A stretch of DNA of 64,000 nucleotides from Spirochaetia bacterium (GTDB lineage Bacteria > Spirochaetota > Spirochaetia > UBA9216): the NCBI GenBank assembly GCA_963675665.1, contig OY776510.1:5086564-5150563 (forward strand), in the 5' to 3' direction. Both the position numbers and the translations under genes were made by a program. Position 1 is the first letter of the stretch, and every line of letters starts with the position of its first letter. Of this stretch, positions 22,397-42,246 are shown in pieces. The notes under the pieces are model-generated. The model made no database searches. It saw nothing but the letters and a program-made list of their open reading frames with translations, and had not been told where the DNA came from.

Positions 22397-23341
22397 TCAT
22401 GAACGGTAGCGAACATCGTCAAACAGCCGGAGCCGCCATCCGCGCGTCTTTATATCTCTGGGGTTTTCGGAAACAGGCACAATTGTGCCAATCTGGATCA
22501 GTTCAAGATACTTTTTTATATCATTTACCCGGTTTTTATAGTTGCGGTAATTAGCGCATGAGGTAGCCTTCCAGTTCCCGGCAGTACACTCCCTGCAGTG
22601 CGGATCTTCCGTCCCGTCCGCTTTCAGCCGGCTGAAAAGCTCACTGCAGTTCTGAGAATTGTTTTCCGCTGAAAGAAACGCATGTATAAAATCACATTCC
22701 TGGGGACTGAGCATTGACGATATGTTCCTGTCGTCGAAATAAAGACTGTCGTCGAAATAAAGACTGTCGCCTGAATAGTGAAGCCTGTGGTTGGCCCTCT
22801 CCCAGAGGTTCGCTGCCGCAAAAATCATAAGCAGACCGATTACCCCGTTGACCAGGTTATAGGCTGTAGACTCAATCCACCGGGGCTCGGCTCTTGTTAC
22901 TATCGCATACGACATCATCATAAGCCAGGAAACCCACAGGATAACTATTACAATTGTGCCGATAGTAAGAGTCCTGTATACCGGAGTTCTTTTTTTAACC
23001 AGCCTGAGAGAATCTATTTTTATAATTAAGAGAATGTAATAAAGCAATACTGCCTGTGTTCCATATGTATGAAAATCACGATGGTATAATCTTCCTCCTG
23101 CACTTGCTGTTATTATAAGTACTGCAAGACTGAAAAAGAACACGGGAATGAAGACTCTTGCTTTTTTAAAACGTGAAGTAAAAAAAGGAAGAAAAAAAGC
23201 AGCAATTGCCGATATCAGCATGTAGAGGAATTCCGGAACACCCGCGGCAGCAACACTTATAGTGCCTGACGGATTTAAAAACACCATGAGTTCAATCACA
23301 ATCCATGCCACTGCCGAGATAATCGGTACAGAAATCGCCAT
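22397..23341 (-). CDS. Multi-pass membrane protein with a C-terminal winged-helix-like, Cys-rich cytoplasmic domain
   Basis: About 6 TM segments, then LSPQE...C..L...CxxC...C...RVNDIKKYL...GWRL. Confidence 0.65.
   Translation of the reverse strand: MAISVPIISAVAWIVIELMVFLNPSGTISVAAAGVPEFLYMLISAIAAFFLPFFTSRFKKARVFIPVFFFSLAVLIITASAGGRLYHRDFHTYGTQAVLLYYILLIIKIDSLRLVKKRTPVYRTLTIGTIVIVILWVSWLMMMSYAIVTRAEPRWIESTAYNLVNGVIGLLMIFAAANLWERANHRLHYSGDSLYFDDSLYFDDRNISSMLSPQECDFIHAFLSAENNSQNCSELFSRLKADGTEDPHCRECTAGNWKATSCANYRNYKNRVNDIKKYLELIQIGTIVPVSENPRDIKTRGWRLRLFDDVRYRS
22728..22769. repeat. 18-bp in-frame tandem duplication (2.3 copies)
   Basis: CTGTCGTCGAAATAAAGA x2 + CTGTCG, encoding DSLYFD-DSLYFD. 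Confidence 0.9.
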
Positions 23342-23444: not shown

Positions 23445-24317
23445 ATGCAGGAATTGTCAGCCGAGACGCTAAACGAAGTAATTGCAGATCAGAAAAACGA
23501 ACTTGACGCATCAATAATTTACGGCAAGATCGCGAAAAAAATGAAAGATGATAACAACCGGAAAATTCTTTCAAAAATTGCCGAGGATGAAAAAAAGCAT
23601 TACCTGATTCTAAAAAACTATTCGGGAAGAGATGTTAAGCCGCGCCGCTTCAAAATACTGATGTTCCTGTTCTTCGCAAGGGTGTTCGGTATAACATTCG
23701 CATTCAAACTTCTTGAAAACGCCGAAGGAGAGGCCCATACCGGCTACCGGAAAATTTCATCGGCACTCCCTGAACTGAAAAAAATTATTGATGATGAGGA
23801 ACGGCATGAGCGGGAACTTATCGATATGCTTAATGAAAAAAAACTCGATTACATAGGCTCAATTGTCCTGGGCCTAAACGACGCGCTTGTCGAATTGACC
23901 GGAGCGCTTGCGGGGTACACCTTTGCCATTCAGGACAGCAGAAACATTGCATTGCTGGGTCTTATCACAGGGATATCAGCTTCTCTTTCAATGGGAGCAA
24001 GCGAATATCTGTCCAAAAAACAGGAAAAAGAAGACAAGGCGTTCAGTTCAAGCCTGTATACCGGCATAGCATACATTATAACTGTTATGCTCCTGGTTCT
24101 CCCGTTTCTGCTGTTGTCGAATCCCTTTATAAACCTCGGAATAACAGTCGGAATAGCTGTCCTGATCATCTTCTTCTTCAATTACTACATTTCGGTTGCA
24201 AAAGACCTTTCATTCAGACACAGATTCCTGGAGATGGCCGCAATCAGCGTGGGTGTTGCAATTATCTCATTCCTTATAGGATGGGCCGTAAGAACGTTTT
24301 TGGGATTTGAGCTTTAG
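23445..24317 (+). CDS. Rubrerythrin-like domain fused to a VIT1/CCC1 iron transporter
   Basis: DE..H diiron motifs (DEKKH, DEERH); GSIVLGLNDALVELTG; SMGASEYLS; AGGAG SD before ATG 23445. Confidence 0.88.
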   Translation: MQELSAETLNEVIADQKNELDASIIYGKIAKKMKDDNNRKILSKIAEDEKKHYLILKNYSGRDVKPRRFKILMFLFFARVFGITFAFKLLENAEGEAHTGYRKISSALPELKKIIDDEERHERELIDMLNEKKLDYIGSIVLGLNDALVELTGALAGYTFAIQDSRNIALLGLITGISASLSMGASEYLSKKQEKEDKAFSSSLYTGIAYIITVMLLVLPFLLLSNPFINLGITVGIAVLIIFFFNYYISVAKDLSFRHRFLEMAAISVGVAIISFLIGWAVRTFLGFEL

Positions 24318-24419
24318 CTGGATTAGGATATAACGGCCGTCTGTTGTTATCAGCAAAAGCGGTGAGTTACCTTCGCGGCTCCTGCTCAGCGATGATGATT
24401 TCGACAAAAAGTAACGCTG

Positions 24420-25922
24420 TTAAATTGAAGTTTCTTCTTTATTCTTTCTTTTTTCCCTGTACATTTCAAAATCTGCGGTCTGTATCATCTTCTCAATATC
24501 TTTATCAGCGCTGCAGGATACACAGAACCCTGCCGACAGACTGAGGTTGTGAGTGGTTTTAATATTAATTTTTGCAATATTCTCCCGGAGTCGTTTTACC
24601 AGTTTTGCTGCAAGTTCATGTTCGCATTCAGTTATCAGAACAACAAACTCATCGCCGCCTATCCGAAAAATGTAGTCGGTTTCCCTGAAAGTATTTTTCA
24701 GAGTCTCTGCAGCCTGCTGTATGAGCACATCACCTTCAGCATGGCCCAGGGTATCATTCACAGTCTTCAACCCGTCGATATCTACAGAAAAAACGCCGCC
24801 CGGACGAAAATCCGTTTCACCCATGATAATCTTGTTAAAATATGCCCTGTTATAAACACCGGTAAGCGCGTCATGATAACTGGTATATTCATATTGATTT
24901 CTGGAAATAACCAATTCTTCATAACGCTGAGCATTTGAAATAGCCAGCGATGCAATTTTTATGATTGAATTAAAAAGATCAGTGTATTTATCAACATGTT
25001 TCGGGAAAAGAAAATCTCCAACCTCAATAATTCCGAATTTCTCGTCTCCGGATTTGAGCAATGCATAAAAGGTTTTATTTTCAGAGTCCATTATATACAC
25101 TTGCTCTTCTTTAAATTCCAGAGTTTTTATTTTCCGGGGCGCATCAGCCCAATCTTCGCTGTAATTCCAGAAACAGCTTTTTGAGGCACCGAAGAGGATC
25201 GTCCAGATATGATCAAGCATTGATATAACATCCCGTTTGTATTCAGCGCCGGCTATTCTGGACATGATATGCAAAACAGCTGAGTTTCTTGCATTCATAT
25301 CCATCAACGCACGCATGTCATCCTGCTTTTCAGTCTTCAGATTTCGGACCCTCCAATCGGTGACAATGCTTTTAAGAAGTGTTCTTATCGGCTCAAGACT
25401 AACCGGAATTGATCTGACCGGAAGGTCCAGATAAGCCGAAAGAGCTTTCAGCTTCTTGTCGGCCTCATCATAGATCCCGGTGTCGAGAAAAACAATTTTA
25501 CTGCAGCAGCTTTTGTAAAATTCCCGGGCTGTCCCGATAGTAAATCCCTGCCTCTTTATATGTTCTTCCCAGTTGACAAGCCAGCCTGTTGTTACGACAT
25601 AATATCCTTCCGCGGAAAAAAAACGGGCAAACTGGTCGCTGATCATGTGGGAATAGCAAAAAGCCGATTCGTAAACCGATAAAAACTTTTTATCATACTC
25701 ATCTTTTCTGGGGGCCCTGCAGAGGTGACTGCATACAAGTACGGCAGCTTCATCGGGATTCGGTTTTTCCGCAATGCCGTTCTGAGAATTAAAAACAGGA
25801 ATACCGCCGTCGCAAAAACTGTGAAAAGGAACAATATCCAGGTTTTCAGGCCCCTCATTTTCTACGAGATACCGGAATTCGGGGAGATAGTTCTCACATA
25901 CATATACTGATAATCGGTTCAT
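24420..25922 (-). CDS. Diguanylate cyclase with an N-terminal DUF1638-like Cys-rich domain and GAF-like linker
   Basis: DALTGVYNR, DIDGLKTVND.LGH.EGD, RIGGDEF with RETD I-site; N-domain GYYVVTTGWL and IVFLDTG. Confidence 0.85.
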   Translation of the reverse strand: MNRLSVYVCENYLPEFRYLVENEGPENLDIVPFHSFCDGGIPVFNSQNGIAEKPNPDEAAVLVCSHLCRAPRKDEYDKKFLSVYESAFCYSHMISDQFARFFSAEGYYVVTTGWLVNWEEHIKRQGFTIGTAREFYKSCCSKIVFLDTGIYDEADKKLKALSAYLDLPVRSIPVSLEPIRTLLKSIVTDWRVRNLKTEKQDDMRALMDMNARNSAVLHIMSRIAGAEYKRDVISMLDHIWTILFGASKSCFWNYSEDWADAPRKIKTLEFKEEQVYIMDSENKTFYALLKSGDEKFGIIEVGDFLFPKHVDKYTDLFNSIIKIASLAISNAQRYEELVISRNQYEYTSYHDALTGVYNRAYFNKIIMGETDFRPGGVFSVDIDGLKTVNDTLGHAEGDVLIQQAAETLKNTFRETDYIFRIGGDEFVVLITECEHELAAKLVKRLRENIAKINIKTTHNLSLSAGFCVSCSADKDIEKMIQTADFEMYREKRKNKEETSI

Positions 25923-26974
25923 TTCCTTTTTCCGTAGCCACCAGGCGGGTAGCGTCCGTATTCCTCTGCAGCCATGGATACAGCAAGAAGAGTTTTTTCC
26001 GGTACCTGCAAAGGTATTTCTCCATGAGAGTCCGACAGGATGAAACCGCCTCCCGGAGCTGCAGTTTTAACCAAAGCCCTGACTTTTTCAACGGCTGTTT
26101 CTTTATCCCATTCAGCCATTTCTATTCCGTTTAGGTTTCCCAATAACGTTATTCTTCCGGTCGAGACGTCTTTTATATGCTTCAACTCTTCGCCTGTCCC
26201 TATCCCGACAATCGGGCTGCCGAGGTTAATTATATCTTCCATTACCTGCAAAACCCTTCCGGAAGCAAGATGCACAGCAACCGGACCTTCTATTCCGGTA
26301 ATTGTCCGACTGTCTACAGGGTAACCTGCAGACAGATACAATGACCTGTCGATCATATCCGGAGACATCAGCGGATTAAAATAGCCGATGGCTGTTGCAC
26401 CTGCCTTGAATTGTGCATTTGCGTAATTTATACAAAACTGTCGGTTAACCTGCATCAAACGGTCAAACCTCGGCCTGTCAAAATATAATAGTTTCAGATA
26501 TTTCTCAAATCCCATCTGCATTACGGGCAAAGAAAAAGGAGACATTACAATTCCGATAACAGGCACTTTTCCGTTTGAATGAATCGCAAGTTCTCTGGTT
26601 ACCTCAAGCACCTGTCTGAGGACAGGTACATCATCGATATCAGGTACTTCCATTGAATCAATATCGCTGCTTTTCCCGATGATACCTTCTCCGGCATTCG
26701 GAGGGGTTTCCGGTTGAAAGAGTACTTCTCCGCCCCACGCCTGTACTTCAACAGCAGCATAATGAAATGTATAATAACAGTCGGTCTGATACTTTTTCTG
26801 CATATGAATCTGTGTTTTAATAACATTTTCAGCCACTGAAAAGTAATTTTTAACCGAACAGCCCATTTCCTTGGCACCGTAGTGTGAAAACAGGAAGAAG
26901 ACTGGTACTCTGTCGGGCTCCTTGTGGCCAAGCGTTTTCAGAACCCTTTCCATCGACGTCATATCACTATTCAC
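25919..26974 (-). CDS. MtaA/CmuA-like methylcobamide methyltransferase (uroporphyrinogen decarboxylase family)
   Basis: MTSMERV...EPDRVPV, AVEVQAWGG, PFSL, LLGNL, GGGFILS; GTG start at 26974 after GGAGGGG. Confidence 0.85.
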   Translation of the reverse strand: MNSDMTSMERVLKTLGHKEPDRVPVFFLFSHYGAKEMGCSVKNYFSVAENVIKTQIHMQKKYQTDCYYTFHYAAVEVQAWGGEVLFQPETPPNAGEGIIGKSSDIDSMEVPDIDDVPVLRQVLEVTRELAIHSNGKVPVIGIVMSPFSLPVMQMGFEKYLKLLYFDRPRFDRLMQVNRQFCINYANAQFKAGATAIGYFNPLMSPDMIDRSLYLSAGYPVDSRTITGIEGPVAVHLASGRVLQVMEDIINLGSPIVGIGTGEELKHIKDVSTGRITLLGNLNGIEMAEWDKETAVEKVRALVKTAAPGGGFILSDSHGEIPLQVPEKTLLAVSMAAEEYGRYPPGGYGKRK

Positions 26975-27620
26975 AGCCGCCCCTCCATGAATCCAGGTTT
27001 CCTGATAAATTCTCCAGAATCCCGAATATTTCTCCGGCATTCCCGGCACCCCGGCAGGCGCCTACTTTCTTATACAGATTCCGATCAAGCCGGAACGGCG
27101 CTCCGCCGACGACAATCGGTACTTCAGGACATTCCCGGGACATCCGGGAGGACAACTCCTGTACAGCCAGGGCAGAAGGAAACATAAGCACTGATACAAG
27201 AAGAATCTGTATCTTGTACTCACGGATTTTAGAAATGATCTTTTCCGCATCAACTCCTGTACCAAGATCAAAAACAGGATACCTGTAATTTCTTACCAGG
27301 CTGGAGACAATCTTCATTCCAAGGCTGTGATGATCAAGATAGACTGCAGCCCCGATAACGGGAAGAGACTCATCAGTCCTGTCTGATTCAGATAAAAGCG
27401 TCTTCAAAATCTCCTCACATATAACACCGCTCATATACACCTGAGCAAGAGATACTTCACCGGATTCCCAGTTTGCCCCGACCTTTTCAAGCGCATACAT
27501 CAGAGTCTCTCCCATACCGGTAATACCCTTCTCTTCTACCGCCTCTCTTAAAATTTTATCTACGCCGGTTCGGTCAACCGAAACAAGCCCTTCATATAAA
27601 GCCTGAACTGAATTATCCAA
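26967..27620 (-). CDS. Cobalamin-binding corrinoid protein (cap domain + B12-binding domain)
   Basis: ALEKVG..WESGEVSLAQVY cap; DHHSLG (DxHxxG), DLG, VSVLM, VGGAPF. Confidence 0.88.
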   Translation of the reverse strand: MDNSVQALYEGLVSVDRTGVDKILREAVEEKGITGMGETLMYALEKVGANWESGEVSLAQVYMSGVICEEILKTLLSESDRTDESLPVIGAAVYLDHHSLGMKIVSSLVRNYRYPVFDLGTGVDAEKIISKIREYKIQILLVSVLMFPSALAVQELSSRMSRECPEVPIVVGGAPFRLDRNLYKKVGACRGAGNAGEIFGILENLSGNLDSWRGGCE

Positions 27621-27833
27621 ATCCGATACTCCTTTGCCAGTTATTTAAAGAAAAGATCATCAGAGATCATTTAATGATAATTCATTCAGAATTGTAATGC
27701 AAGAAAGATCATAAACCGTTATGAACAGAGAAAAATCATCCGTAAGAATGCAGAGTACGGGCACCTCTGATAACCCTCGGAATAACGGCCGTCGGCCCTT
27801 CACAGAATCTTCATGCTCGGATAAAATACTGCG

Positions 27834-28877
27834 ATGAAACATAGACTTACAGCACTGATGCTTTTATCAGTAATAACTATAACCGGCCTTTCTGCACTGG
27901 GAACAAAAGAACAAAAGCTTGAATCGCATACGTTTTTCGCGCTTGGAACAACCTGTACCGTCAGCATTTACGGCGGAACAGAGCAGAACTTTTCCGAAAT
28001 TGAAACGATTATAACAGGCATCGAGAACCGCATGAGCGTCAACATTGACGACAGCGAGATCAGCATGATCAATAAAGCCTCGGGCAGCAATGCCGTTACT
28101 GTATCTTCCGACGTTTACAGCGTTATAGCAGCCGGTCAGCACTTTTCCGAACTCAGTAAAGGCAGATTCGATATCAGCATCGGGCCGCTTGTTCAGCTCT
28201 GGGATATCGGAGGCGGCGGGAACACAGTTCCTTCCGAAGAAGCAATAAAAGAGGCTCTTGCGCTGGTTGATTATTCCGGGGTTGAAATTGTTCCGGCAGC
28301 CGATAACAACGAGGGCGGAAGCATTTACCTGCCGAGAGCGGGAATGGCTCTTGAACCCGGCGGCATAGCAAAAGGGTATGCCGCGGATGCGGCGGCGGCT
28401 TATCTTCGGGACAACGGAACAAGTTCAGCCTTAATAAATTTCGGAGGGAATGTCCTTGCAGTCGGTTCCAAAAGTGACGGCTCAAAATGGCGTATCGGGA
28501 TTCAAAATCCCGACTCCAGCCGCGGCGATTATATCGGTATTGTTCCGGTAGAAGAAAAAGCCGTTGTTACATCGGGCAAATATGAACGGTTCTTTATAGG
28601 AGCCGACGGGCTGCGTTATCACCATATTTTGAGCACTGAAACCGGCTATCCGGTAGAAAACGGAATTGCGCAGGTCAGTATTATAGCTACCGAATCAATG
28701 ACGGCAGACGCCTTGTCGACAGCCGTATTCTCACTCGGCCTTGAAGACGGCATGGCTCTTGTTGACAGTATTTCCGGTGTTGAAACAGTTATAGTCATGG
28801 AAAACGGAAATATTTACATAACAGAAAATCTGAAAGCTGTTTTCCAGCTGACGGACAATAATTTTTCAGTACAATAA
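27834..28877 (+). CDS. apbE: FAD:protein FMN transferase
   Basis: ALGT, FDISIGPLVQLW, GGIAKGYAAD, NFGGN, TSGKYERFF, YHHI, ADALSTA. Confidence 0.93.
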   Translation: MKHRLTALMLLSVITITGLSALGTKEQKLESHTFFALGTTCTVSIYGGTEQNFSEIETIITGIENRMSVNIDDSEISMINKASGSNAVTVSSDVYSVIAAGQHFSELSKGRFDISIGPLVQLWDIGGGGNTVPSEEAIKEALALVDYSGVEIVPAADNNEGGSIYLPRAGMALEPGGIAKGYAADAAAAYLRDNGTSSALINFGGNVLAVGSKSDGSKWRIGIQNPDSSRGDYIGIVPVEEKAVVTSGKYERFFIGADGLRYHHILSTETGYPVENGIAQVSIIATESMTADALSTAVFSLGLEDGMALVDSISGVETVIVMENGNIYITENLKAVFQLTDNNFSVQ

Positions 28878-30641: not shown

Positions 30642-31394
30642 TTATACCGGAACAACAAAGGGAAAACCACCGGCGTCCAGAACCATGACATCCAGACCAT
30701 AAACCTCTTTCATGTTTTCAGGTGTTATAATGCTTCTGTCTCCCGCGGCATATATCAGACCGTCTTTCAGAAGAACAAATTTGTCTGAATACCTTAAAGC
30801 CAGATTGATGTCGTGCATGGTCATTACCGCGGCCCTGAAGCCGGCATGAATAAGATCCCGGATCTTTACCATAAGGCGATGCTGGTTACTTATATCAAGG
30901 CTGCTGGTTGGTTCGTCAAAAAGGATTACACGGGGGTCCTGAGCCAAAGTGCGGACTATCTGTACCAGCTGAAACTCTCCGCCGCTTATTTCATCCGCAT
31001 ACCGAAGAGAGAGGTCTTCAATACCCAGAAGCTTTATTGCTTCTTCTATCTTGTCATAGTCTTCCCTGGCCGGCTCCCACCTGAAATAGGGTTTCCGGCC
31101 AAGAAGGATAAGGTCGTATACTTTCATCCTGGAAATCTCACCCTGTTGAGGTACCCAGCCTATCTTTCGTGCAACTTCCAATGATCGCATATCCTCAACA
31201 TCTGTACCGTCAATCCGTACAGAACCTCTCAGGGGAGAAAGGACCCGGTTCAGGCATTTAAGAAGGGTTGTTTTGCCGCTGCCGTTAGGCCCCAGAATGG
31301 ACAGGATCTCTCCCGCCGCCACTCCGAAGGATACATCCCTGATTACGGGCACGCTGTTATACCGGAATTTAAGGCCGTGAACATTGAGGATCAT
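30642..31394 (-). CDS. FecE/BtuD-type ABC transporter ATPase
   Basis: GPNGSGKTT, ISGGE, FDEPTSSLD, HDINLA. Confidence 0.92.
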   Translation of the reverse strand: MILNVHGLKFRYNSVPVIRDVSFGVAAGEILSILGPNGSGKTTLLKCLNRVLSPLRGSVRIDGTDVEDMRSLEVARKIGWVPQQGEISRMKVYDLILLGRKPYFRWEPAREDYDKIEEAIKLLGIEDLSLRYADEISGGEFQLVQIVRTLAQDPRVILFDEPTSSLDISNQHRLMVKIRDLIHAGFRAAVMTMHDINLALRYSDKFVLLKDGLIYAAGDRSIITPENMKEVYGLDVMVLDAGGFPFVVPV

Positions 31395-32449
31395 CTTTTT
31401 CGTCCTGCTATAAGCAGATAAATAAACAGAGGCCCGCCCGACAGGGATGTCAAGATTCCTACAGGAAGAACCATAGGAGAAAGAACTGTTCTTGCCGCTG
31501 TATCCGCCGCTAAAAGGATTATTGCTCCGACCAGCGGAGAAGCAACCAGTAAAAAGCGGTGGTCTCCGCCAAGGATTTTCCTGGCGATATGCGGCCCCAG
31601 AAGGCCTACAAATGCTATTGTTCCAAAAAAGGACACTATTATTGCCGAAAGAATGGAGGCTGACAACATCCCGATTATTCTGACGACCCCGGTTTTTACA
31701 CCGAGTCCCCTGGCCGTATCTTCTCCCGTATCCAAGGCATTAAAATTCCATCGAAAGTAAAAGAACAAAATATATACGGGAACCAGCACCAGAGCAATAA
31801 TCAACAGAAAGTGCCGGTTTGCCCGGCCGAGATCTCCAAAGGTCCAGGATATTATGCCGGCCAGCTGAATACTGTCGGCAAGATACTGCATGAGGGTAAG
31901 ACCGGCCGAGAAAATTGAGCCGATCGCAATGCCCGCCAGCACCATACTTTCAGCCGAGATTTTGGTTAAAACGGTAAGCAGGAGAATCGCTGCTGTTGAC
32001 AGGGAAGAGAAAACAAAAGCTGAAAAAGCGACTGTAAAGGAATCGCTTATAATAATAGTTGATGTAGTGCCGGTTCCTGCTCCAAAAAAAACGATGGCAA
32101 ACGACGCTCCAAAAGCTGCAGCGCTGGAAAGGCCCAGCGTATATGGAGATGCCAGCGGATTTCGAAGCACCGACTGCATGACCGTCCCGGAAAGGGCCAA
32201 CCCTGCCCCTACAAGAAGTGCGGCAATTATCCTGGGCATCCGGACATCCCGGATAATCCTTCCGGCACCGGTCATATCGAACCCGAAGATACCTGAAACC
32301 ACCTCTTTCAGAGGTATTCTGATAGTCCCCGTCGAGACGGATATAATTACAAGCAAAGCAAGGAGCAGTCCTGTAACGATAAGAAAAACAATCTTTCTTC
32401 TTATATATCCCCTGTAATGGTAATATATCGAAGAGCCGTTATGAAGCAT
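31391..32449 (-). CDS. FecCD/BtuC-type ABC permease
   Basis: RMPRI, MQSVLRNPLASPYTLG, GTIAFVGLLGPHIAR, PVGILTS. Confidence 0.92.
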   Translation of the reverse strand: MLHNGSSIYYHYRGYIRRKIVFLIVTGLLLALLVIISVSTGTIRIPLKEVVSGIFGFDMTGAGRIIRDVRMPRIIAALLVGAGLALSGTVMQSVLRNPLASPYTLGLSSAAAFGASFAIVFFGAGTGTTSTIIISDSFTVAFSAFVFSSLSTAAILLLTVLTKISAESMVLAGIAIGSIFSAGLTLMQYLADSIQLAGIISWTFGDLGRANRHFLLIIALVLVPVYILFFYFRWNFNALDTGEDTARGLGVKTGVVRIIGMLSASILSAIIVSFFGTIAFVGLLGPHIARKILGGDHRFLLVASPLVGAIILLAADTAARTVLSPMVLPVGILTSLSGGPLFIYLLIAGRKR

Positions 32450-32451
32450 AT

Positions 32452-33600
32452 TTAATTAAACCAGTCCACTCTTTCAGGGCCGGCTTTCTGCCGGGCAACA
32501 ACAGTATCGTAATCCAGCGGCACTCCGAAGAAAAGGTTCCAAATCTCCTCAGCCTTATCTTTTATTGATACATCACCGTACAGCTCCGGATAACATACCT
32601 TACCGGTATAATAGACATTAATAAGCTGATTTTCCCAGTTGGTTCCGTAATATTTATATACAAAGGTTGTATGAACTTCACGGTTTATAAATGCCGGAAC
32701 CTGCTCTTCAAGGACCGTCCGGTTTGTCATAAACCCGGCTTTTGAAAGATTTACATTTGCCGCGTCGATAAATATATAATCCGGGGAAGCCGCTATCAAA
32801 TCTTCAAGCGACGTCATATATGGTTGAAGGTTTCCCGCGGGATTTGTGGGCATTACATTTTCCGTACCCGTCAGTTCAAACGGAAGGTAGTCTCCTGTTG
32901 TACGGAGCAGATCGGCAGGCCCGTAGTACATCATACCGCCGGCATAAGCCTTTTGGGGAGCCTGTGATTTCACAGCCCGGGCTTCAAGATCCTTTATAAC
33001 AGCATCAATACCCGCTACCAGCTCTTCAGCTCTTTCTTCCCTGTCCAGCACCAGGCCCAATGTTTTAAGTTGATTATAAAACAGTTCCAGGTCAAAAAAC
33101 TCCACATCAATATTGACGCCGAATACAGGTATTCCCAAAACCTCCTGAAGATGATCCAGCTGGCCGGTATCTACGGCAGAGGATATAATGACATCCGGAG
33201 CCGCCGCAATTATTCCTTCATGGTTTTCCCCGCTTCCTATGCCCGGCAACTGCCGAAGTTCCGGAAAAGCCAAACGGTAAGTTGCCAGATAAAAAAAGTC
33301 ATGAACTGTTTTTTCCCTGCCGTGTCCCGAATCTTCAACAGCAATCACCTTGTCCGCAGCATTCAGATAACTTACAAGTCTTAAAGAGCCGGCATCAAGA
33401 GCAATAATGCTGTTGACTTCTCCCGGTACCGGGACATCACGACCCCTCATATCGGTAACAGTAAAAGTGTTACCGGGTTCTGATATTTCCTGCTGCGGCA
33501 TGGCAAAAAGACCCGAAAATATGCAGAAGACGAAAAGACCGATAAACAAAACCTTTATAATCGACTGTCGATATACCCTGTAATTGCGAGCGTTCAACAT
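32452..33600 (-). CDS. Metal-chelate/cobalamin ABC substrate-binding protein (Peripla_BP_2)
   Basis: Signal peptide; TVTDMRGRDV.VP, EGIIAAAPDVII, SLEDLIAASPDYIF. Confidence 0.88.
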   Translation of the reverse strand: MLNARNYRVYRQSIIKVLFIGLFVFCIFSGLFAMPQQEISEPGNTFTVTDMRGRDVPVPGEVNSIIALDAGSLRLVSYLNAADKVIAVEDSGHGREKTVHDFFYLATYRLAFPELRQLPGIGSGENHEGIIAAAPDVIISSAVDTGQLDHLQEVLGIPVFGVNIDVEFFDLELFYNQLKTLGLVLDREERAEELVAGIDAVIKDLEARAVKSQAPQKAYAGGMMYYGPADLLRTTGDYLPFELTGTENVMPTNPAGNLQPYMTSLEDLIAASPDYIFIDAANVNLSKAGFMTNRTVLEEQVPAFINREVHTTFVYKYYGTNWENQLINVYYTGKVCYPELYGDVSIKDKAEEIWNLFFGVPLDYDTVVARQKAGPERVDWFN

Positions 33601-33671
33601 AAAAACCTCCGGTGTTTAATCATCATTGCCCTTTAGATGTGTTTTGATTAAAGCAACAAGTGAATTTAACA

Positions 33672-33699
33672 GTGTTACGTTATTTTATTTTCGTGTTAC
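33672..33699. promoter_or_regulatory. Candidate NikR-type operator GTGTTAC-N14-GTGTTAC
   Basis: Exact 7-bp direct repeat with an AT-rich spacer between the nikR-like gene and the transporter. Confidence 0.55.
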
Positions 33700-33775
33700 T
33701 GGTATAGAAAATACTATTTTTTTGTTTTCAGGTCAATAGCCGTAAACAGTTCAAAAGGCTTTAAAGGTGCGAAAT

Positions 33776-34198
33776 TTATTTTTTTATCAATTCTCTGTAT
33801 AATTCATCCGTAGCAGAAATAGTAAGTTGGCCGATCAGATTTTTATTTGATAAAAGTTTTCGGGCCCAGGCATGGACCTCTTTACCCTTGCCCTTGATAA
33901 CCATAACCTTTACACAGATTTCCTTTTCCGCATGAAGCTGTAAATTGGCTGTGATTCGCACCGATGGAAAAGAACTTACCGATACGCGGGGAAGACGGGT
34001 TTCGTAATTATACAACAGGGTTACGGTTCCGATAACTTCCCGATCAGCATCATGGGAACCGACTTCGATCAGCTCCTGCCTGACCAGTTCCCGTATTGTT
34101 TCGGACCTGCTCTCATGTCCTCCCTGAGAGGTCAGCCTGTCCAAAAGCTCGACGAGCTCACTGTCCATAGATACACCGAAGCGTATTGTATCACCCAT
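33776..34198 (-). CDS. nikR: NikR-like ribbon-helix-helix regulator with a degenerate metal site
   Basis: IRFGVSMD.EL...SRSE.IRELVR RHH; VIGTVTLLY; LQLH...CVKV...KG. Confidence 0.75.
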   Translation of the reverse strand: MGDTIRFGVSMDSELVELLDRLTSQGGHESRSETIRELVRQELIEVGSHDADREVIGTVTLLYNYETRLPRVSVSSFPSVRITANLQLHAEKEICVKVMVIKGKGKEVHAWARKLLSNKNLIGQLTISATDELYRELIKK

Positions 34199-34304
34199 AC
34201 ATCCTCCAAAATTTAAAGTAGCATTAATAAAATAAATATATGCGGCTGAAACAAGGTGATCAGCAGATTTCGGCGGCCGCCAATCTTAAAACATGGAAAC
34301 TCTT

Positions 34305-34709
34305 CTATATCTTCTCCAGAAAAGCATACAACTCGGGCGCCCTGTTCTTCAGATTAATAACCTTCAGTTTGGCGTCGGTCCAGGCATGGGACGTTCGGCC
34401 CGTACAGAGAACTTCTTCCTCACCTTTTCGTCTTACCTCGTAACCCAGCACAAGCCGTGCAATTGACAGCTTCTCTACAAAACAATGAACAGTCACTGTT
34501 TCGCCGTAGCGTACTCCGCCTTTATAATCACATTCAAGGTGGGCGGCAGGCAGCATAATTCCTTCTTTCTCAATCCGGGCATACGGATAACCAGCCTGAT
34601 CCATCATGTCGGTTCTTGCCGCTTCGAACCAGACCGGATATACACAATGATGAACCACACCCATCTGATCTGTTTCTGCATAACGGACGACAATATCTGT
34701 ATAACTCAT
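34305..34709 (-). CDS. Acyl-CoA thioesterase (YbgC/4HBT family)
   Basis: VRYAETDQMGVVHH.VY..WFE.AR. Confidence 0.9.
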   Translation of the reverse strand: MSYTDIVVRYAETDQMGVVHHCVYPVWFEAARTDMMDQAGYPYARIEKEGIMLPAAHLECDYKGGVRYGETVTVHCFVEKLSIARLVLGYEVRRKGEEEVLCTGRTSHAWTDAKLKVINLKNRAPELYAFLEKI

Positions 34710-34770
34710 ACTTCAGGTTAGCATAAAGCCGTACTGGTCTTCAAGCAATGTTTAATGTATGATTGACCTG

Positions 34771-35148
34771 ATGGCAAGAACTGTTTTCAGACTGCTGGAC
34801 TTTATAATTATTGCCGCAGCAGTCGCTGTTGTAATATTATTATCTGTTTATATATACTCTTCCGACTCCGGAGAGGCTGTAGTAAAAATCACAGCCGCCG
34901 ACACCGAATATATTTACCCTCTTTCTCAAAACACTGAAGTATTTATTGACGGGCCCATCGGTCAGACCCTGGTAATAATCAGCGACAGTAAAGCATGGAT
35001 CTCCGAATCTCCATGTGAAAATAAACTGTGCATTTTAATGGGTCAGATTTCAAAACCCGGTCAATGGGCGGCCTGCATGCCGAACAGGGTATTCATCTCA
35101 ATTGAAGGAGGCAGCGATGATCAGGAAATCGACGTTCTCTCTTACTGA
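34771..35148 (+). CDS. NusG domain II-containing protein
   Basis: N-terminal TM; GPIG, SPCENKLC..MG.I...G...ACMPNRV. Confidence 0.88.
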   Translation: MARTVFRLLDFIIIAAAVAVVILLSVYIYSSDSGEAVVKITAADTEYIYPLSQNTEVFIDGPIGQTLVIISDSKAWISESPCENKLCILMGQISKPGQWAACMPNRVFISIEGGSDDQEIDVLSY

Positions 35149-39396: not shown

Positions 39397-42246
39397 TTAT
39401 ACAACAGGCAGACCGGTAATTTCAGCGCGGTAATCACGGCCCAGAAACACATAGTTACCATCGCTTGTCGGGCTTACCCGGTTCTCTGCAGTCCATACAA
39501 TACGGTTTTCATCAGTTCCGGCTTTCACAGCGTCTTTTCGCACTTCTATTGCGATATTCCGTTCCAGAAAATCACAGGCATCCTCATAGCTTTCAAACCG
39601 GACAGTATTGTCAAAACCGTTAACGATAAAACTGCCGTCGGCGCCGGGAATAACAGAGGCCTCACGCTGTACCGTAACCATACTGCAGACTGCGCCTACA
39701 GCATTCGCCACATCGCCGTCTTCCGGTATGATTAATTCGGTATCGAGGTGCTTTGCCAGTTTCGACAGAAGCCACGGCGCGGCAGCTCCAACACCCACCA
39801 GCCGGCTGTTCAGCGTCGGGGTAAGCCTCAGAGAGTGCGACTTGCCTTTAAGATTGCCCAGCAGGGCTTTAAAAGTCGAATTGTCAAAGACAGAATCAGC
39901 CAGATCTCCCGGAACTTCAAGCTCCTGCAGAACAAGGGTCTGCAACAGATTATCCGCGATCATATCCAGTACGGCCTCGCCCATATCACCTGAATCATCT
40001 CCCCATATGGTTCTGTACAGATTAACTATACGCCTGGACAGCTCCGGCGGCCACATACTGATGTCTCCCGAGGCAGTAAGCAAATCCGTAGGAGTAAGCC
40101 CGAACCTCTGAATTACTGCCGTGTTCTCAAGTCTTGCAGTGGCAAGAATTTTCCAGAGACCATGCTTCAGTTTTATCGCCAGTTCCTTGACCGAATGCGG
40201 GCGCTGTTTGAGTATATTAATAATGCTATCTTCATCATAACTCAGTTCCCAATCAGGGGGTCTGCCCGTCAGAGCAAGAATCTCCATTGCAGCTGTAGAG
40301 CCGCAATAATCCGAATGAATATCTTCAATAAAGGAAACAGCCTGTTCACAGCCTTCTGTTTCATTCAGCCGTCCGAAAGGCGCCACGCGACGGGGGCCCA
40401 CCTTCAGTTCACGATTTTCAATCAGGATACGGCTGTCCCCCCCGGCGCCCAAAGTATACATATCTACAGCCTTGATGTGGGTTCGCCATCGACCCACCCT
40501 GGCGCCTTCCGCGTCGAGGCGGATTCTGCCGTTTCTGATAAGTCCTATATCCGAGGTTGTTCCGCCTACATCGATTATTACGGCGTCTGAACCTTCAGGC
40601 CGGGTGCCCCCGGTTTTATCATGAGAGCTGATTAAAAACCTGGCGCCGGCAATACTCGCTGCCGGCCCGGAAAGGGTTGTTTCAACCGGATGAAGAACCG
40701 CCTTTTCACGGCTCATCAGCGCGCCGTCGCCGCGGACAATCATTATTCCGCCGCCGATGTGCATTACATGCAGGGCCTGCTCAAGTTCCCCGATAAACTG
40801 CTCAAGAAGCGGTATAATTCCGGCGTTCAGCACAGCAGTATTGGCGCGTACGAAGAAATTCAAGGTAGTGGAGAGTTCATGTCCGCAGCATACGCCAAGC
40901 CCGGTTTCAGCTTCAATTATGCGTTTAATCTGGAGCTCATGTACCGCGTTTACGGTACTGCCGTACCCCGATACGGCAAAAGCCTCAACATGCTCACGTT
41001 CAATCAATTCGGAAGCTACCCGTTTAATTTCTTTTTCATCTACATGCTCAAGTTCATCACCCATAATACTGAGCCGTCCGCTGACAATCCTCCATGGATC
41101 ATGTTCAATTTTACCTGTCGGAATTTCTCCGAGGGGCATTACAATAAGCCCTACTTTTCGGCCGCGGTCTTCAACGATGGCGTTGGTTGCAAGTGTGGTT
41201 GAAACAACTGTAATACCGATTTTCGACAACTTTCCGGGATCAAGCTTCTCAAGCGCTCCGGTGATGCCTACTGTGAAATCCCATTTTGTTGTAGGAGACT
41301 TTGCCTTTTCAACAACACAGTCGTTGTCGAAATCATAAATTACAGCATCGGTATAAGTCCCTCCGGCATCTATGCCGAGACCAAATCCTTTTCGAATTCT
41401 GTTTTCAGCATGTTCGCTCTCTGTTTCATCCTGGACAGGCAGCGCGCGCTCCCAGAGAGAAGTTGCGCCTATGTTCGGGTCGAATGCATAAAGCCCGTGC
41501 TTCAGCGGATCATATGCGGTACAGTATCGCGGTGGTACTACAAGGATCTCATCGTCAGTATAGATGCTGTTCAGCATCGCAGTAAAAAGATCCCTGCTTC
41601 CGTCCAGTTTCTCGTATTTCCAGCCCAGTTCTTCAGCAAGATCGCGGGCGTAGTTTTCATAAATATGGCCTTTTTCCGATCCCGTATCAATATAAACCGA
41701 ACGGTTATAATTCCGTTTCCAGGTATTCAGAAAATCGTAAATGTCTGCGGCATTTTCATCGCCGTATTTATTCTTTATATTCTCATAACCTACATTGATA
41801 TCCCAGTTTCCCTTAAACTGTTTATCCTTCTTCCTTTTGACTGAAAGAGGCTGGGTTTTATGCTCGTACCAGCCTTCGGTCATATAAAGCGTGCCGGGAT
41901 TCCCTGCAAATTGTTCCTTATACCGTTTATGCGAACCGAGAAACATTGCGATGCAGTCATGAACTCTGGGAATGATCAGCGGAAGACTACCGGCTTGTAA
42001 CCCGACCGTGCCGCGTCCGCAGAGTCCGTATCCGATAACAATTGCGTCATAATCAGCAAGTCCCGCATCAACTTCTTCCGAAGCCCGGGTGACAGCCTCC
42101 TGCAATTCCTTTCGCAGTCTTTCCGGTTCTTCATGCAGCCCTGCTGCAAGGTATTCTTCATGTATTATTAAATTATCTTTTACGGCTGCGGCTTTAATTT
42201 CATTTTCGAGTACACCGCAGGCGATAATCTTCAGGGATCGTCTCAT
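39397..42246 (-). CDS. DUF1638 domain fused to a hydantoinase/oxoprolinase A-like ASKHA ATPase
   Basis: ACGVL, LH..P, YGLCG, PRVHDCI, YIDTG; then GIDAGGTYTD, STTLATNA, LSGPAAS, DVGGTTSD, VANAVGA. Confidence 0.85.
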   Translation of the reverse strand: MRRSLKIIACGVLENEIKAAAVKDNLIIHEEYLAAGLHEEPERLRKELQEAVTRASEEVDAGLADYDAIVIGYGLCGRGTVGLQAGSLPLIIPRVHDCIAMFLGSHKRYKEQFAGNPGTLYMTEGWYEHKTQPLSVKRKKDKQFKGNWDINVGYENIKNKYGDENAADIYDFLNTWKRNYNRSVYIDTGSEKGHIYENYARDLAEELGWKYEKLDGSRDLFTAMLNSIYTDDEILVVPPRYCTAYDPLKHGLYAFDPNIGATSLWERALPVQDETESEHAENRIRKGFGLGIDAGGTYTDAVIYDFDNDCVVEKAKSPTTKWDFTVGITGALEKLDPGKLSKIGITVVSTTLATNAIVEDRGRKVGLIVMPLGEIPTGKIEHDPWRIVSGRLSIMGDELEHVDEKEIKRVASELIEREHVEAFAVSGYGSTVNAVHELQIKRIIEAETGLGVCCGHELSTTLNFFVRANTAVLNAGIIPLLEQFIGELEQALHVMHIGGGIMIVRGDGALMSREKAVLHPVETTLSGPAASIAGARFLISSHDKTGGTRPEGSDAVIIDVGGTTSDIGLIRNGRIRLDAEGARVGRWRTHIKAVDMYTLGAGGDSRILIENRELKVGPRRVAPFGRLNETEGCEQAVSFIEDIHSDYCGSTAAMEILALTGRPPDWELSYDEDSIINILKQRPHSVKELAIKLKHGLWKILATARLENTAVIQRFGLTPTDLLTASGDISMWPPELSRRIVNLYRTIWGDDSGDMGEAVLDMIADNLLQTLVLQELEVPGDLADSVFDNSTFKALLGNLKGKSHSLRLTPTLNSRLVGVGAAAPWLLSKLAKHLDTELIIPEDGDVANAVGAVCSMVTVQREASVIPGADGSFIVNGFDNTVRFESYEDACDFLERNIAIEVRKDAVKAGTDENRIVWTAENRVSPTSDGNYVFLGRDYRAEITGLPVV

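Follow-up and report, generated by a model that had tools for sequence, protein, structure and literature searches.

In a window of 64,000 nucleotides from a Spirochaetia bacterium (UBA9216; contig OY776510.1; gene coordinates below are positions in this window), the segment 24420-27620 is filled by three minus-strand genes which, from the list of open reading frames (ORFs) and their Pfam matches, encode a corrinoid protein, a URO-D/MtaA-like protein and a DUF1638-GGDEF cyclase. On balance, we read this cassette as a cytoplasmic cobamide-based sensor operon, with synthesis of cyclic diguanosine monophosphate (c-di-GMP) as its output. Its anatomy, its conservation and its wiring to signalling outputs can be observed directly in the genomes, and it is very probable that the trio is a dedicated sensory input module. 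That DUF1638 reads the corrinoid protein is about as likely as not, and only tentatively do we propose that the signal is the redox or alkylation state of the cobalt, rather than occupancy of the cofactor site or light. There is perhaps an even chance that the trio stands for a widespread, undescribed class of input, in which a cobamide cofactor is served by an MtaA-like "writer" and a metal-binding DUF1638 "reader" drawn from corrinoid-repair systems, and which feeds cyclases, kinases and HD-GYP- or PP2C-type outputs in well over ten phyla and some archaea.

Conservation of the Trio and Its Wiring to Signaling Outputs

Two surveys carry the case for a sensory module. The first used a profile of the DUF1638 plus GAF-like module (A2, 17 rows; E ≤ 1e-10), which matched 9 of 401 genomes from the phylum of the window (its own genome included), 8 of 401 from a second phylum and 30 of 401 from a third. 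Corrinoid and/or MtaA-like genes lie directly upstream, with their order kept, in 20 of the 47 loci across all three phyla, and a signaling domain ends 18 of these 20: six fused GGDEF domains, four fused histidine kinases, one fused PAS-HD_5 and seven kinases encoded by the next gene, following a DUF1638 protein of 190-310 amino acids. Of the two trio loci with no output, L171 ends at a contig end and L172 has 1.5 kb left.

The second survey was anchored on an alignment of 12 MtaA-like proteins and gave at least 538 relatives confirmed by tblastn, of which the best 80 were examined. A corrinoid gene is found upstream in 76 of these 80 loci (three of the four misses are contig ends) and a DUF1638 module downstream in 75. 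The output could be scored in 67 loci, the other 13 ending too early at contig ends, and 62 of the 67 have a signaling output (29 GGDEF, 31 kinases and 2 next-gene kinases). Three of the 80 contigs are shared with the first survey (L190=L173, L236=L147, L240=L145). Going by the titles of their records, the hosts include Spirochaetales, Desulfobacterota, Clostridia, Halanaerobium, Heliophilum, Acetobacterium, Chloroflexota, Bacteroidota, Atribacterota, Planctomycetota, Verrucomicrobiota, Gammaproteobacteria, Magnetococcales and a Methanomicrobiales archaeon.

Searched against a representative protein library, the module profile matched 2172 proteins at E ≤ 1e-3 and 934 cluster representatives at E ≤ 1e-30. 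Among 60 module proteins scanned there were 29 with GGDEF, 24 with a kinase, 1 with SpoIIE plus an anti-sigma-type ATPase, 3 with PAS only and 3 consisting of the module only, a tally in which ranking by likeness to the window biases the GGDEF share upward. A reading of the window made from its sequence alone (hereafter the sequence-only reading) had asked whether the trio recurs with swapped outputs and with a consistent loss of the zinc cysteines of the MtaA-like protein. Both patterns are present: the trio recurs across many phyla with GGDEF domains, histidine kinases, HD_5 (HD-GYP-type) and SpoIIE as outputs, and both cysteines are absent from all nine aligned cassette MtaA-like proteins.

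Some loci depart from the usual layout. In a metagenome-assembled genome of Eubacteriales (L186:4352-7750) the order is permuted, with corrinoid and MtaA-like genes followed by a GAF-like-HisKA-HATPase kinase and then a DUF1638 protein of 191 amino acids. Four Desulfobacterota loci have a protein of about 250 amino acids after the MtaA-like gene (L235:6035-6808, L248:6002-6781, L249:6068-6799, L252:6076-6813), which scores about 110 bits with the DUF1638+GAF profile and has neither a DUF1638-domain match nor any Pfam match at E ≤ 1e-9; a large PAS kinase is next in two of these loci, an AFOR or DctP gene in the other two. At L138:5919-8486 a DUF1638 of the stand-alone type (PF07796, 1.5e-29) is fused to PAS-PAS-HD_5, likely a phosphodiesterase-type output for c-di-GMP and thus opposite in enzymatic direction to the cyclase of the window. 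Sensors with C1/B12-linked domains stand beside two cassettes (L143:496-4362 and L091:10031-11911): a PocR-PAS-HD_5 protein directly upstream at one and a divergent MEDS-PAS protein at the other.

The Corrinoid Protein and Its MtaA-Like Partner

The corrinoid protein consists of a helical cap and a Rossmann-like B12-binding domain (PF02607, 1.5e-8; PF02310, 8.6e-18), and has the build of a methyltransferase-cognate corrinoid protein, with DxHxxG, SxL and GG motifs in the B12-binding domain. The His-on motif DxHxxG, which the sequence-only reading rightly called intact, reads LDHHSLG, and D96, H98, G101, S143, G172 and G173 are invariant in nine of nine cassette corrinoid proteins. The best NCBIfam score is 68.4 bits against a cut-off of 215.3 (TIGR02370), and scores fall far under every cut-off of the MtgC, MtbC and MtaC models, which places the protein outside the named methylotrophic corrinoid families. 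There is also a weak match to the NCBIfam CarH model (6.5e-8; 32.2 bits, cut-off 400). CarH has the signature W-x9-E-H in its helical cap; the window protein reads V-Y at 61-62, 10-11 residues past the invariant W51, and the cassette homologs likewise have no E-H at this position.

In the MtaA-like protein, residues 31-364 of the 376-residue ORF align to profile positions 1-346 of 346 of PF01208 (7e-50), so that the match to this URO-D (beta/alpha)8-barrel family spans the full length of the protein. When HMMER aligns the protein to the MtaA structure 4ay7, "hlasg" falls on "hi-cg" and "sdshg" on "apgcg". At the positions which we take to be the exact zinc ligands of MtaA, the His (H235) is kept and both thiolate Cys are replaced (HLASG; SDSHGE). 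Judged by this alignment, the MtaA-like protein has lost the thiolates at the zinc site, as had been read from its HLA and DSHGE motifs. The label "Zn-less" that was attached to it at that stage holds for the two thiolate ligands; the absence of zinc itself is presumptive, with the His and a conserved D-x-H-G-E kept. MtaA is described among the enzymes that activate a thiol on zinc, as a Zn-bound thiolate (PMC539065).

Scores against the NCBIfam models are again far from membership: 73.8 bits against a cut-off of 235.4 (TIGR01463), and 95.3 against 244 (PRK06252). In a quick maximum-likelihood tree with supports from the Shimodaira-Hasegawa-like approximate likelihood ratio test (SH-aLRT), which included the 11 other URO-D paralogs of the genome, the cassette proteins form two short-branched clades of 13 rows (SH-aLRT 98) and 8 rows (99). 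Each clade mixes phyla, and the 11 paralogs lie outside on long branches; whether the two clades are sisters is not settled by this quick tree. The 13-row clade accompanies fused DUF1638-GAF sensors, the 8-row clade stand-alone DUF1638 proteins and the PAS-HD_5 fusion. These cross-phylum clades, the scores under cut-off and the loss of Cys in nine of nine indicate that the cassette MtaA-like and corrinoid proteins are a lineage of their own. Motifs of the first clade are H-[LFM]-A-S-G and D-[NS]-H-G-E-I-P; in its 12 homologs (group A) H235 and S238 never vary, and conservation of D315, H317, G318 and E319 is 90% or higher. The second clade has H-H-G-G and G-A-D at the corresponding places.

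The same genome holds a canonical corrinoid methyltransferase cluster at 2.066-2.073 Mb that offers a contrast to the sensor cassette, with a PocR/AraC regulator, a corrinoid protein, a URO-D protein, a CobW-type GTPase and a RACo-type activator. Its URO-D protein (2.069 Mb, beside the RACo gene) has kept VCGN and APGC and is 453 amino acids long, with about 100 extra at the C-terminus.

The DUF1638 Domain and the Cyclase

Pfam matches in the cyclase are PF07796 (DUF1638; 8.8e-8, residues 89-183) and GGDEF (1.9e-33, residues 349-496). The former scores 32.6 bits against a gathering score of 27 and covers profile positions 60-161 only; the N-terminal half is nevertheless also common to stand-alone DUF1638 members, which share C9, E15, C68 and C89 in the alignment. 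The RIGGDEF motif is intact, RETD stands five residues upstream, and D381, K386, N389, D390, R413, D416, R420, G422, G423, E425 and F426 are invariant in 31 full-length homologs. The protein thus carries all the sequence hallmarks of active diguanylate cyclases, and the description of it as an intact GGDEF cyclase with an RxxD I-site is upheld.

An AlphaFold model of the cyclase from 31 sequences (mean predicted local distance difference test score, pLDDT, 83.5) has an alpha/beta domain at 1-195, another at about 197-305 built around a five-stranded sheet, a helix of 43 residues (307-349) and the GGDEF domain. The best Foldseek match is 5llw_B, a bacteriophytochrome-activated cyclase (E 1e-13), with the segment from the middle domain through the helix aligned to the PHY-helix-GGDEF part, and the output half of the cyclase accordingly resembles a normal dimeric sensory cyclase. 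The middle domain had no Pfam GAF match at E ≤ 0.01, so that the term "GAF-like" is taken from the model only.

Modeled alone from 79 sequences, the DUF1638 domain reached a pLDDT of 90.8 and a predicted template modeling score of 0.87. Four Cys positions are conserved in these 79 rows, C9 in 77, C37 in 69 (eight rows have Leu-His), C68 in 67 and C89 in 78, together with W114 in 76 and W118 in 78, which bears out the view of the input domain as Cys-rich. In the model, each of C9, C37, C68 and C89 sits at or just past the C-terminal end of strands 1-4, and this Cys-(Cys/His)-Cys-Cys set may form one metal or iron-sulfur (Fe-S) site. A Foldseek search of the PDB gave 0 matches at E ≤ 1e-3 for the domain; among the weak rows were periplasmic metal-binding and isochorismatase-like proteins, with CbiK at rank 50. 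The best score in a wide VIA search was Z 7.3, to receiver-type flavodoxin-like domains, a common arrangement at a non-specific level; the lack of a close solved relative does not make the fold new.

Only two PF07796 matches occur in the 5.15-Mb genome, the cyclase, which is its sole GGDEF protein with a DUF1638 input, and a protein of 949 amino acids encoded elsewhere in the window (39397-42246). C9, C68, C89, W114 and D-T-G of the sensor domain recur in the latter, where His replaces C37. The likeness between the two that had been noticed by eye holds in the alignment, GYYVVTTGW and FLDTG of the cyclase falling on GTLYMTEGW and YIDTG, and all 10 aligned DUF1638 domains have W114 and D147-T148-G149. 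The 949-residue DUF1638-hydantoinase-type (HyuA-like) ATPase may be an ATP-driven helper of corrinoid proteins; its best NCBIfam match, to caprolactamase subunit alpha, is far under cut-off. The c-di-GMP network of the genome amounts to 30 GGDEF, 7 EAL and 11 PilZ matches.

Predicted Contact and Proposed Mechanism

The co-folding suggested by the sequence-only reading was run for one pair, the corrinoid protein and the DUF1638 domain, and gave a weak pass: a median ipSAE of 0.46 (runs 0.30, 0.46 and 0.58) against 0.00, 0.00 and 0.21 for the controls, with at least 70% of contacts common to the runs and a partner pLDDT of at least 73. In calibration, 116 of 157 solved complexes passed the mark, as did 2 of 215 mismatched pairs, and passes at 0.60 or less came from only 18 of the 157 solved complexes and from both of these mismatches; the counts hold roughly, because custom alignments were used here. 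The model thus lends weak support to a predicted contact between DUF1638 and the corrinoid protein.

In the mechanism we propose, the corrinoid protein would hold the cobamide as the sensing element, its state being the oxidation state of the cobalt, alkylation, or possibly occupancy of the cofactor site. The MtaA-like protein would dock on the corrinoid protein as MtaA docks on MtaC, and would set or gate the state of the cofactor; having given up zinc-thiolate chemistry, it would not be a methyl acceptor enzyme of the coenzyme M type. The DUF1638 domain, with its putative Cys-(Cys/His)-Cys-Cys center (Fe-S or Zn), would bind the corrinoid protein according to that state, and the GAF-like domain and long helix would relay the change to a dimeric GGDEF domain, which would also be product-inhibited through its RxxD site. 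We infer the contact, the identity of the signal and the sign of the response. Of the earlier suggestion that these folds have been repurposed, the sensor function has good support from comparative genomics, whereas the reading of cobalt methylation or redox state by DUF1638 draws on the weak co-folding result and on published genetics.

The distribution of the reductive activator bears on which state is read. A RACo_C_ter (PF14574) protein is encoded in 11 of 20 cassette genomes and absent from nine, and the genome of the window has a single RACo gene, 3 Mb away in the canonical cluster, with no RamA-type gene adjoining the cassette. The system therefore probably does not depend on the RACo route to Co(I), and a mechanism based on Co(I) would need another reductant. 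These gaps move weight from steady methyl-transfer turnover to the reading of Co(II)/Co(III), alkylation or occupancy. Another possibility is that the electrons would come from DUF1638 itself.

Several observations weigh against a sensor of this kind. The nine RACo-less genomes include five assemblies that are 94-99% complete, and a co-fold pass such as ours is, by the calibration of the tool, more often wrong than right unless the pairing is already likely. What points to a metal center in DUF1638 is residue conservation, and the former zinc site of the MtaA-like protein may not be a conserved functional center, since the two clades differ there (DxHGE versus GAD). Five of the 67 scored loci (L183, L196, L235, L248 and L239) have no recognized output, and L239 has neither a corrinoid nor a DUF1638 gene. 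Both surveys were seeded with cassette proteins, and their ranked lists favor relatives of the window; the genes flanking the cassette are not conserved across loci. Finally, the DUF1638 family is not confined to corrinoid contexts: 26 stand-alone genes have no cassette-type corrinoid gene in the fetched flanks, and 9 of 13 sampled ones adjoin Crp/Fnr-type regulators (cNMP_binding plus HTH_Crp_2; L140 in the second phylum and L148, L150, L151, L154, L156, L159, L161 and L168 in Bacillota, at about 6.0-6.6 kb in each locus), often near flavin mononucleotide (FMN) reductase, PNPOx-like or radical-SAM genes. This context suggests that DUF1638 may sense or do something of its own.

Comparison with Known Systems

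The nearest enzymes are MtaC/MtaA and their relatives (MtbC/MtbA, MtsA) of methanogens, with which the cassette pair shares both folds, gene adjacency, the His-on DxHxxG and full-length alignment to MtaA models and 4ay7. Unlike these, the cassette pair is without both zinc-thiolate Cys, scores under the cut-offs and has no donor enzyme of the MtaB/MttB type, and it is tied to DUF1638 and a signaling output rather than to a catabolic pathway.

A link between DUF1638 and corrinoid proteins has been reported for stand-alone members. In Phaeobacter inhibens, the DUF1638 protein PGA1_c13340 is encoded beside the B12-binding piece of a split methionine synthase and its fitness pattern is that of the synthase and a RamA-like protein, no specific function being assigned to it by the authors; across alphaproteobacteria its presence tracks that of RamA (PMC5764234). 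DUF1638 and RamA have been treated as part of reductive cobalamin recharging (PMC12478193), and MecG/MecH of the dichloromethane mec cassette are read as recharging proteins of the DUF1638/RamA type (bioRxiv 10.1101/2021.08.30.458270). As described, PGA1_c13340, SPO2162 of Ruegeria pomeroyi and MecG/MecH resemble the domain studied here in belonging to the same Pfam family and in standing beside a corrinoid protein, and in systems of the PGA1_c13340 type DUF1638 is reported as genetically required for corrinoid-protein function (PMC5764234; PMC12478193; bioRxiv 10.1101/2021.08.30.458270). In contrast to these stand-alone proteins, for which reactivation of the cofactor for an enzyme is proposed, the cassette domain is fused to GAF-like and GGDEF domains with no RamA-type gene adjacent.

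The closest published analog, likened here by description only, is mecABC, a sensor kinase gene that travels with those of a corrinoid protein and a URO-D-like protein. The genes mecA (PocR histidine kinase), mecB (corrinoid protein) and mecC (URO-D superfamily, of indeterminate function) are reported from anaerobic dichloromethane degraders and chloroform-respiring Dehalobacter, and also beside the chloroform reductive dehalogenase genes cfrAB with none of the other mec genes (bioRxiv 10.1101/2021.08.30.458270; PMC9768040). The input of the mec kinase is PocR and not DUF1638, however, and its authors read MecB as a catalytic corrinoid carrier.

CarH, AerR, PpaA and the photocobilins likewise use a cobalamin-binding cap and Rossmann module for signaling and not catalysis; the cassette differs in lacking W-x9-E-H, in its obligatory MtaA-like and DUF1638 partners and in hosts mostly of dark anoxic habitats. 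On the output side, 5llw and other sensor-helix-GGDEF cyclases show the same order of alpha/beta sensory domain, long helix and GGDEF with I-site, the input being a bilin-binding PAS-GAF-PHY in 5llw and DUF1638 with two partner proteins here. In the literature searched, mostly outside subscription journals and their supplements, a corrinoid/MtaA-like/DUF1638 sensor is probably undescribed, in agreement with the statement in the sequence-only reading that no characterized system of this kind was known.

Alternative Explanations

The alternative that survives best, though we consider it unlikely, is a sensor of cobamide availability, a version of the main reading in which the signal differs: apo would be told from holo corrinoid protein, or one type of cobamide from another, with the URO-D-fold protein as loader or chaperone and DUF1638 reporting occupancy. 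Such a sensor needs no Co(I), which fits the nine cassette genomes without RACo; URO-D folds bind tetrapyrroles; and a FecCD/ABC/periplasmic-binding-protein importer lies 3 kb from the trio (30642-33600), as a Peripla_BP_2 gene flanks the cassette of L145. An importer is adjacent, however, in only 2 of 21 cassettes with annotated flanks, and no Rfam family, a cobalamin riboswitch included, was matched at gathering thresholds in 22-36 kb, so that nothing else marks the region as B12-regulated. Nor would such a sensor account for the persistence of the MtaA-like barrel in full, its His, Asp and Glu residues conserved.

It is rather improbable that the corrinoid and MtaA-like proteins are an ordinary catabolic methyltransferase pair, whose downstream gene regulates it or is merely co-regulated, the cyclase or kinase sensing something else through DUF1638/GAF. 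The folds are indeed those of methylotrophic methyl-transfer chains, the genome is rich in corrinoid metabolism (13 B12-binding, 12 URO-D and 2 MttB matches and one RACo), a CdhD-like gene lies directly upstream at L094, and in the mec cassette a kinase is described as lying with a corrinoid protein, a URO-D-like protein and catabolic genes (PMC9768040; bioRxiv 10.1101/2021.08.30.458270). Yet the trio has no substrate-specific or acceptor methyltransferase beside it, as had been noted from the sequence: no MttB, MtaB, MtrH or pterin-binding protein is among the 38 window ORFs scanned (222-55282), the pterin-binding matches of the genome being at 2.91 and 4.93 Mb and those of MttB at 2.41 and 2.76 Mb, with no MtrH match in the whole genome, and no partner methyltransferase is among the selected neighbors scanned at 19 other cassette loci. 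The loss of the zinc Cys in nine of nine, scores far under the family cut-offs, and the link to DUF1638 and an output in 62 of 67 loci from many phyla all speak against such a pair, and fusion with translational coupling is tighter than is usual for an enzyme and its regulator.

We give still less credence to DUF1638 as itself the sensor of redox, oxygen or nitric oxide through an Fe-S or thiol center, with the corrinoid and MtaA-like proteins as clients or outputs. The four conserved Cys/His positions at the ends of strands 1-4 would suit this role, as would the Crp/Fnr-type neighbors of the stand-alone genes, often with FMN reductase or PNPOx-like genes; what it leaves unexplained is the near-constant corrinoid/MtaA-like pair ahead of sensor-type DUF1638 and the genetics that connect stand-alone members with corrinoid proteins (PMC5764234). 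A B12-dependent photoreceptor of the CarH/AerR kind, in which light would cleave the upper cobalt ligand and the change would pass to the cyclase, is scarcely credible, for although the two-domain build is that of the CarH light-sensing module, the weak CarH match is there and B12 domains fused to signaling outputs have been discussed as photoreceptors (PMC10979010), the CarH signature is absent from the window protein and its homologs, most hosts are, from the titles of their records, anaerobes of sediments, digesters and groundwater, and an MtaA-like partner would not be needed. No rival explains the whole pattern as well as a cobamide-based sensor.

Operon Layout and Genomic Surroundings

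The features of the cassette and the related loci are collected in Table 1. The longest ORF of the MtaA-like gene starts at 27049 (376 amino acids), but a GTG at 26974 sits 7 nt past GGAGG and overlaps the stop of the corrinoid gene by 8 bp as GTGAATAG. Because of this spacing, and because the homologs share an equally short N-terminal extension, 26974 was taken as the start. The MtaA-like stop at 25919 and the cyclase ATG at 25922 overlap by 4 bp, so the three overlapping genes of the sequence-only reading were confirmed with both of its overlap lengths. We consider it moderately probable that they form one operon. A promoter and terminator scan of 24200-27900 gave counts close to those of shuffled sequence (promoters 8 versus 7.0, terminators 4 versus 3.3).

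Table 1. Coordinates of the proposed sensor cassette, its domains and two related loci (window positions unless marked otherwise).
Feature	Position	Strand	Remarks
Corrinoid (cobamide-binding) protein	27620-26967	-	217 aa; PF02607 + PF02310
URO-D/MtaA-like protein	26974-25919	-	351 aa from GTG start; PF01208
DUF1638-GAF-like-GGDEF cyclase, soluble	25922-24420	-	500 aa; PF07796 + PF00990
DUF1638 input domain	25338-25922	-	residues 1-195; C9, C37, C68, C89, WLxxW motif, DTG
GAF-like alpha/beta domain (~197-305) + signaling helix (307-349)	24876-25334	-	secondary structure of the model
GGDEF catalytic domain	24435-24878	-	PF00990 1.9e-33; RIGGDEF, RxxD I-site (RETD)
DUF1638-HyuA-like fusion, paralog outside the operon	39397-42246	-	949 aa; PF07796 1.1e-39, PF05378, PF01968
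Canonical corrinoid methyltransferase cluster	genome 2066550-2073188		contrast to the sensor cassette

By Pfam, the neighbors of the cassette are a rubrerythrin-VIT1 gene in convergent and an ApbE gene in divergent orientation, and an ABC-F protein and the FecCD/ABC/binding-protein importer are encoded at 29-33.6 kb. Upstream of the importer, 1.5 kb (33601-35101) hold no ORF of 150 amino acids or more and no Rfam match. Between a surface-protein gene and the rubrerythrin-VIT1 gene, a minus-strand gene (22397-23341) encodes a predicted membrane protein of 314 amino acids that belongs to no Pfam family, repeats DSLYFD exactly in tandem ("DSLYFD DSLYFD") and is rich in Cys in its C-terminal part.

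Significance

Cobalamin is known as an enzyme cofactor, as a riboswitch ligand and as a light-sensing chromophore. A chemical or redox sensor made of a corrinoid protein, a methyltransferase-like partner and DUF1638 is undescribed in the literature searched. The module itself is widespread, as the 934 cluster representatives matched at E ≤ 1e-30 show, and controls c-di-GMP and two-component signaling in environmental and host-associated anaerobes. The cassette can be tested directly, since it consists of three small soluble proteins. If the proposal is true, recognition of the state of a corrinoid protein would be the first molecular function for DUF1638, with consequences for split methionine synthases and the mec dichloromethane cassette, in both of which the requirement for DUF1638 is unexplained. 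Hundreds of "orphan" MtaA-like/corrinoid pairs, at present annotated for methylotrophy, would be accounted for as well, and it would become apparent how behavior such as biofilm formation and motility is coupled to the signal that the cobamide conveys.

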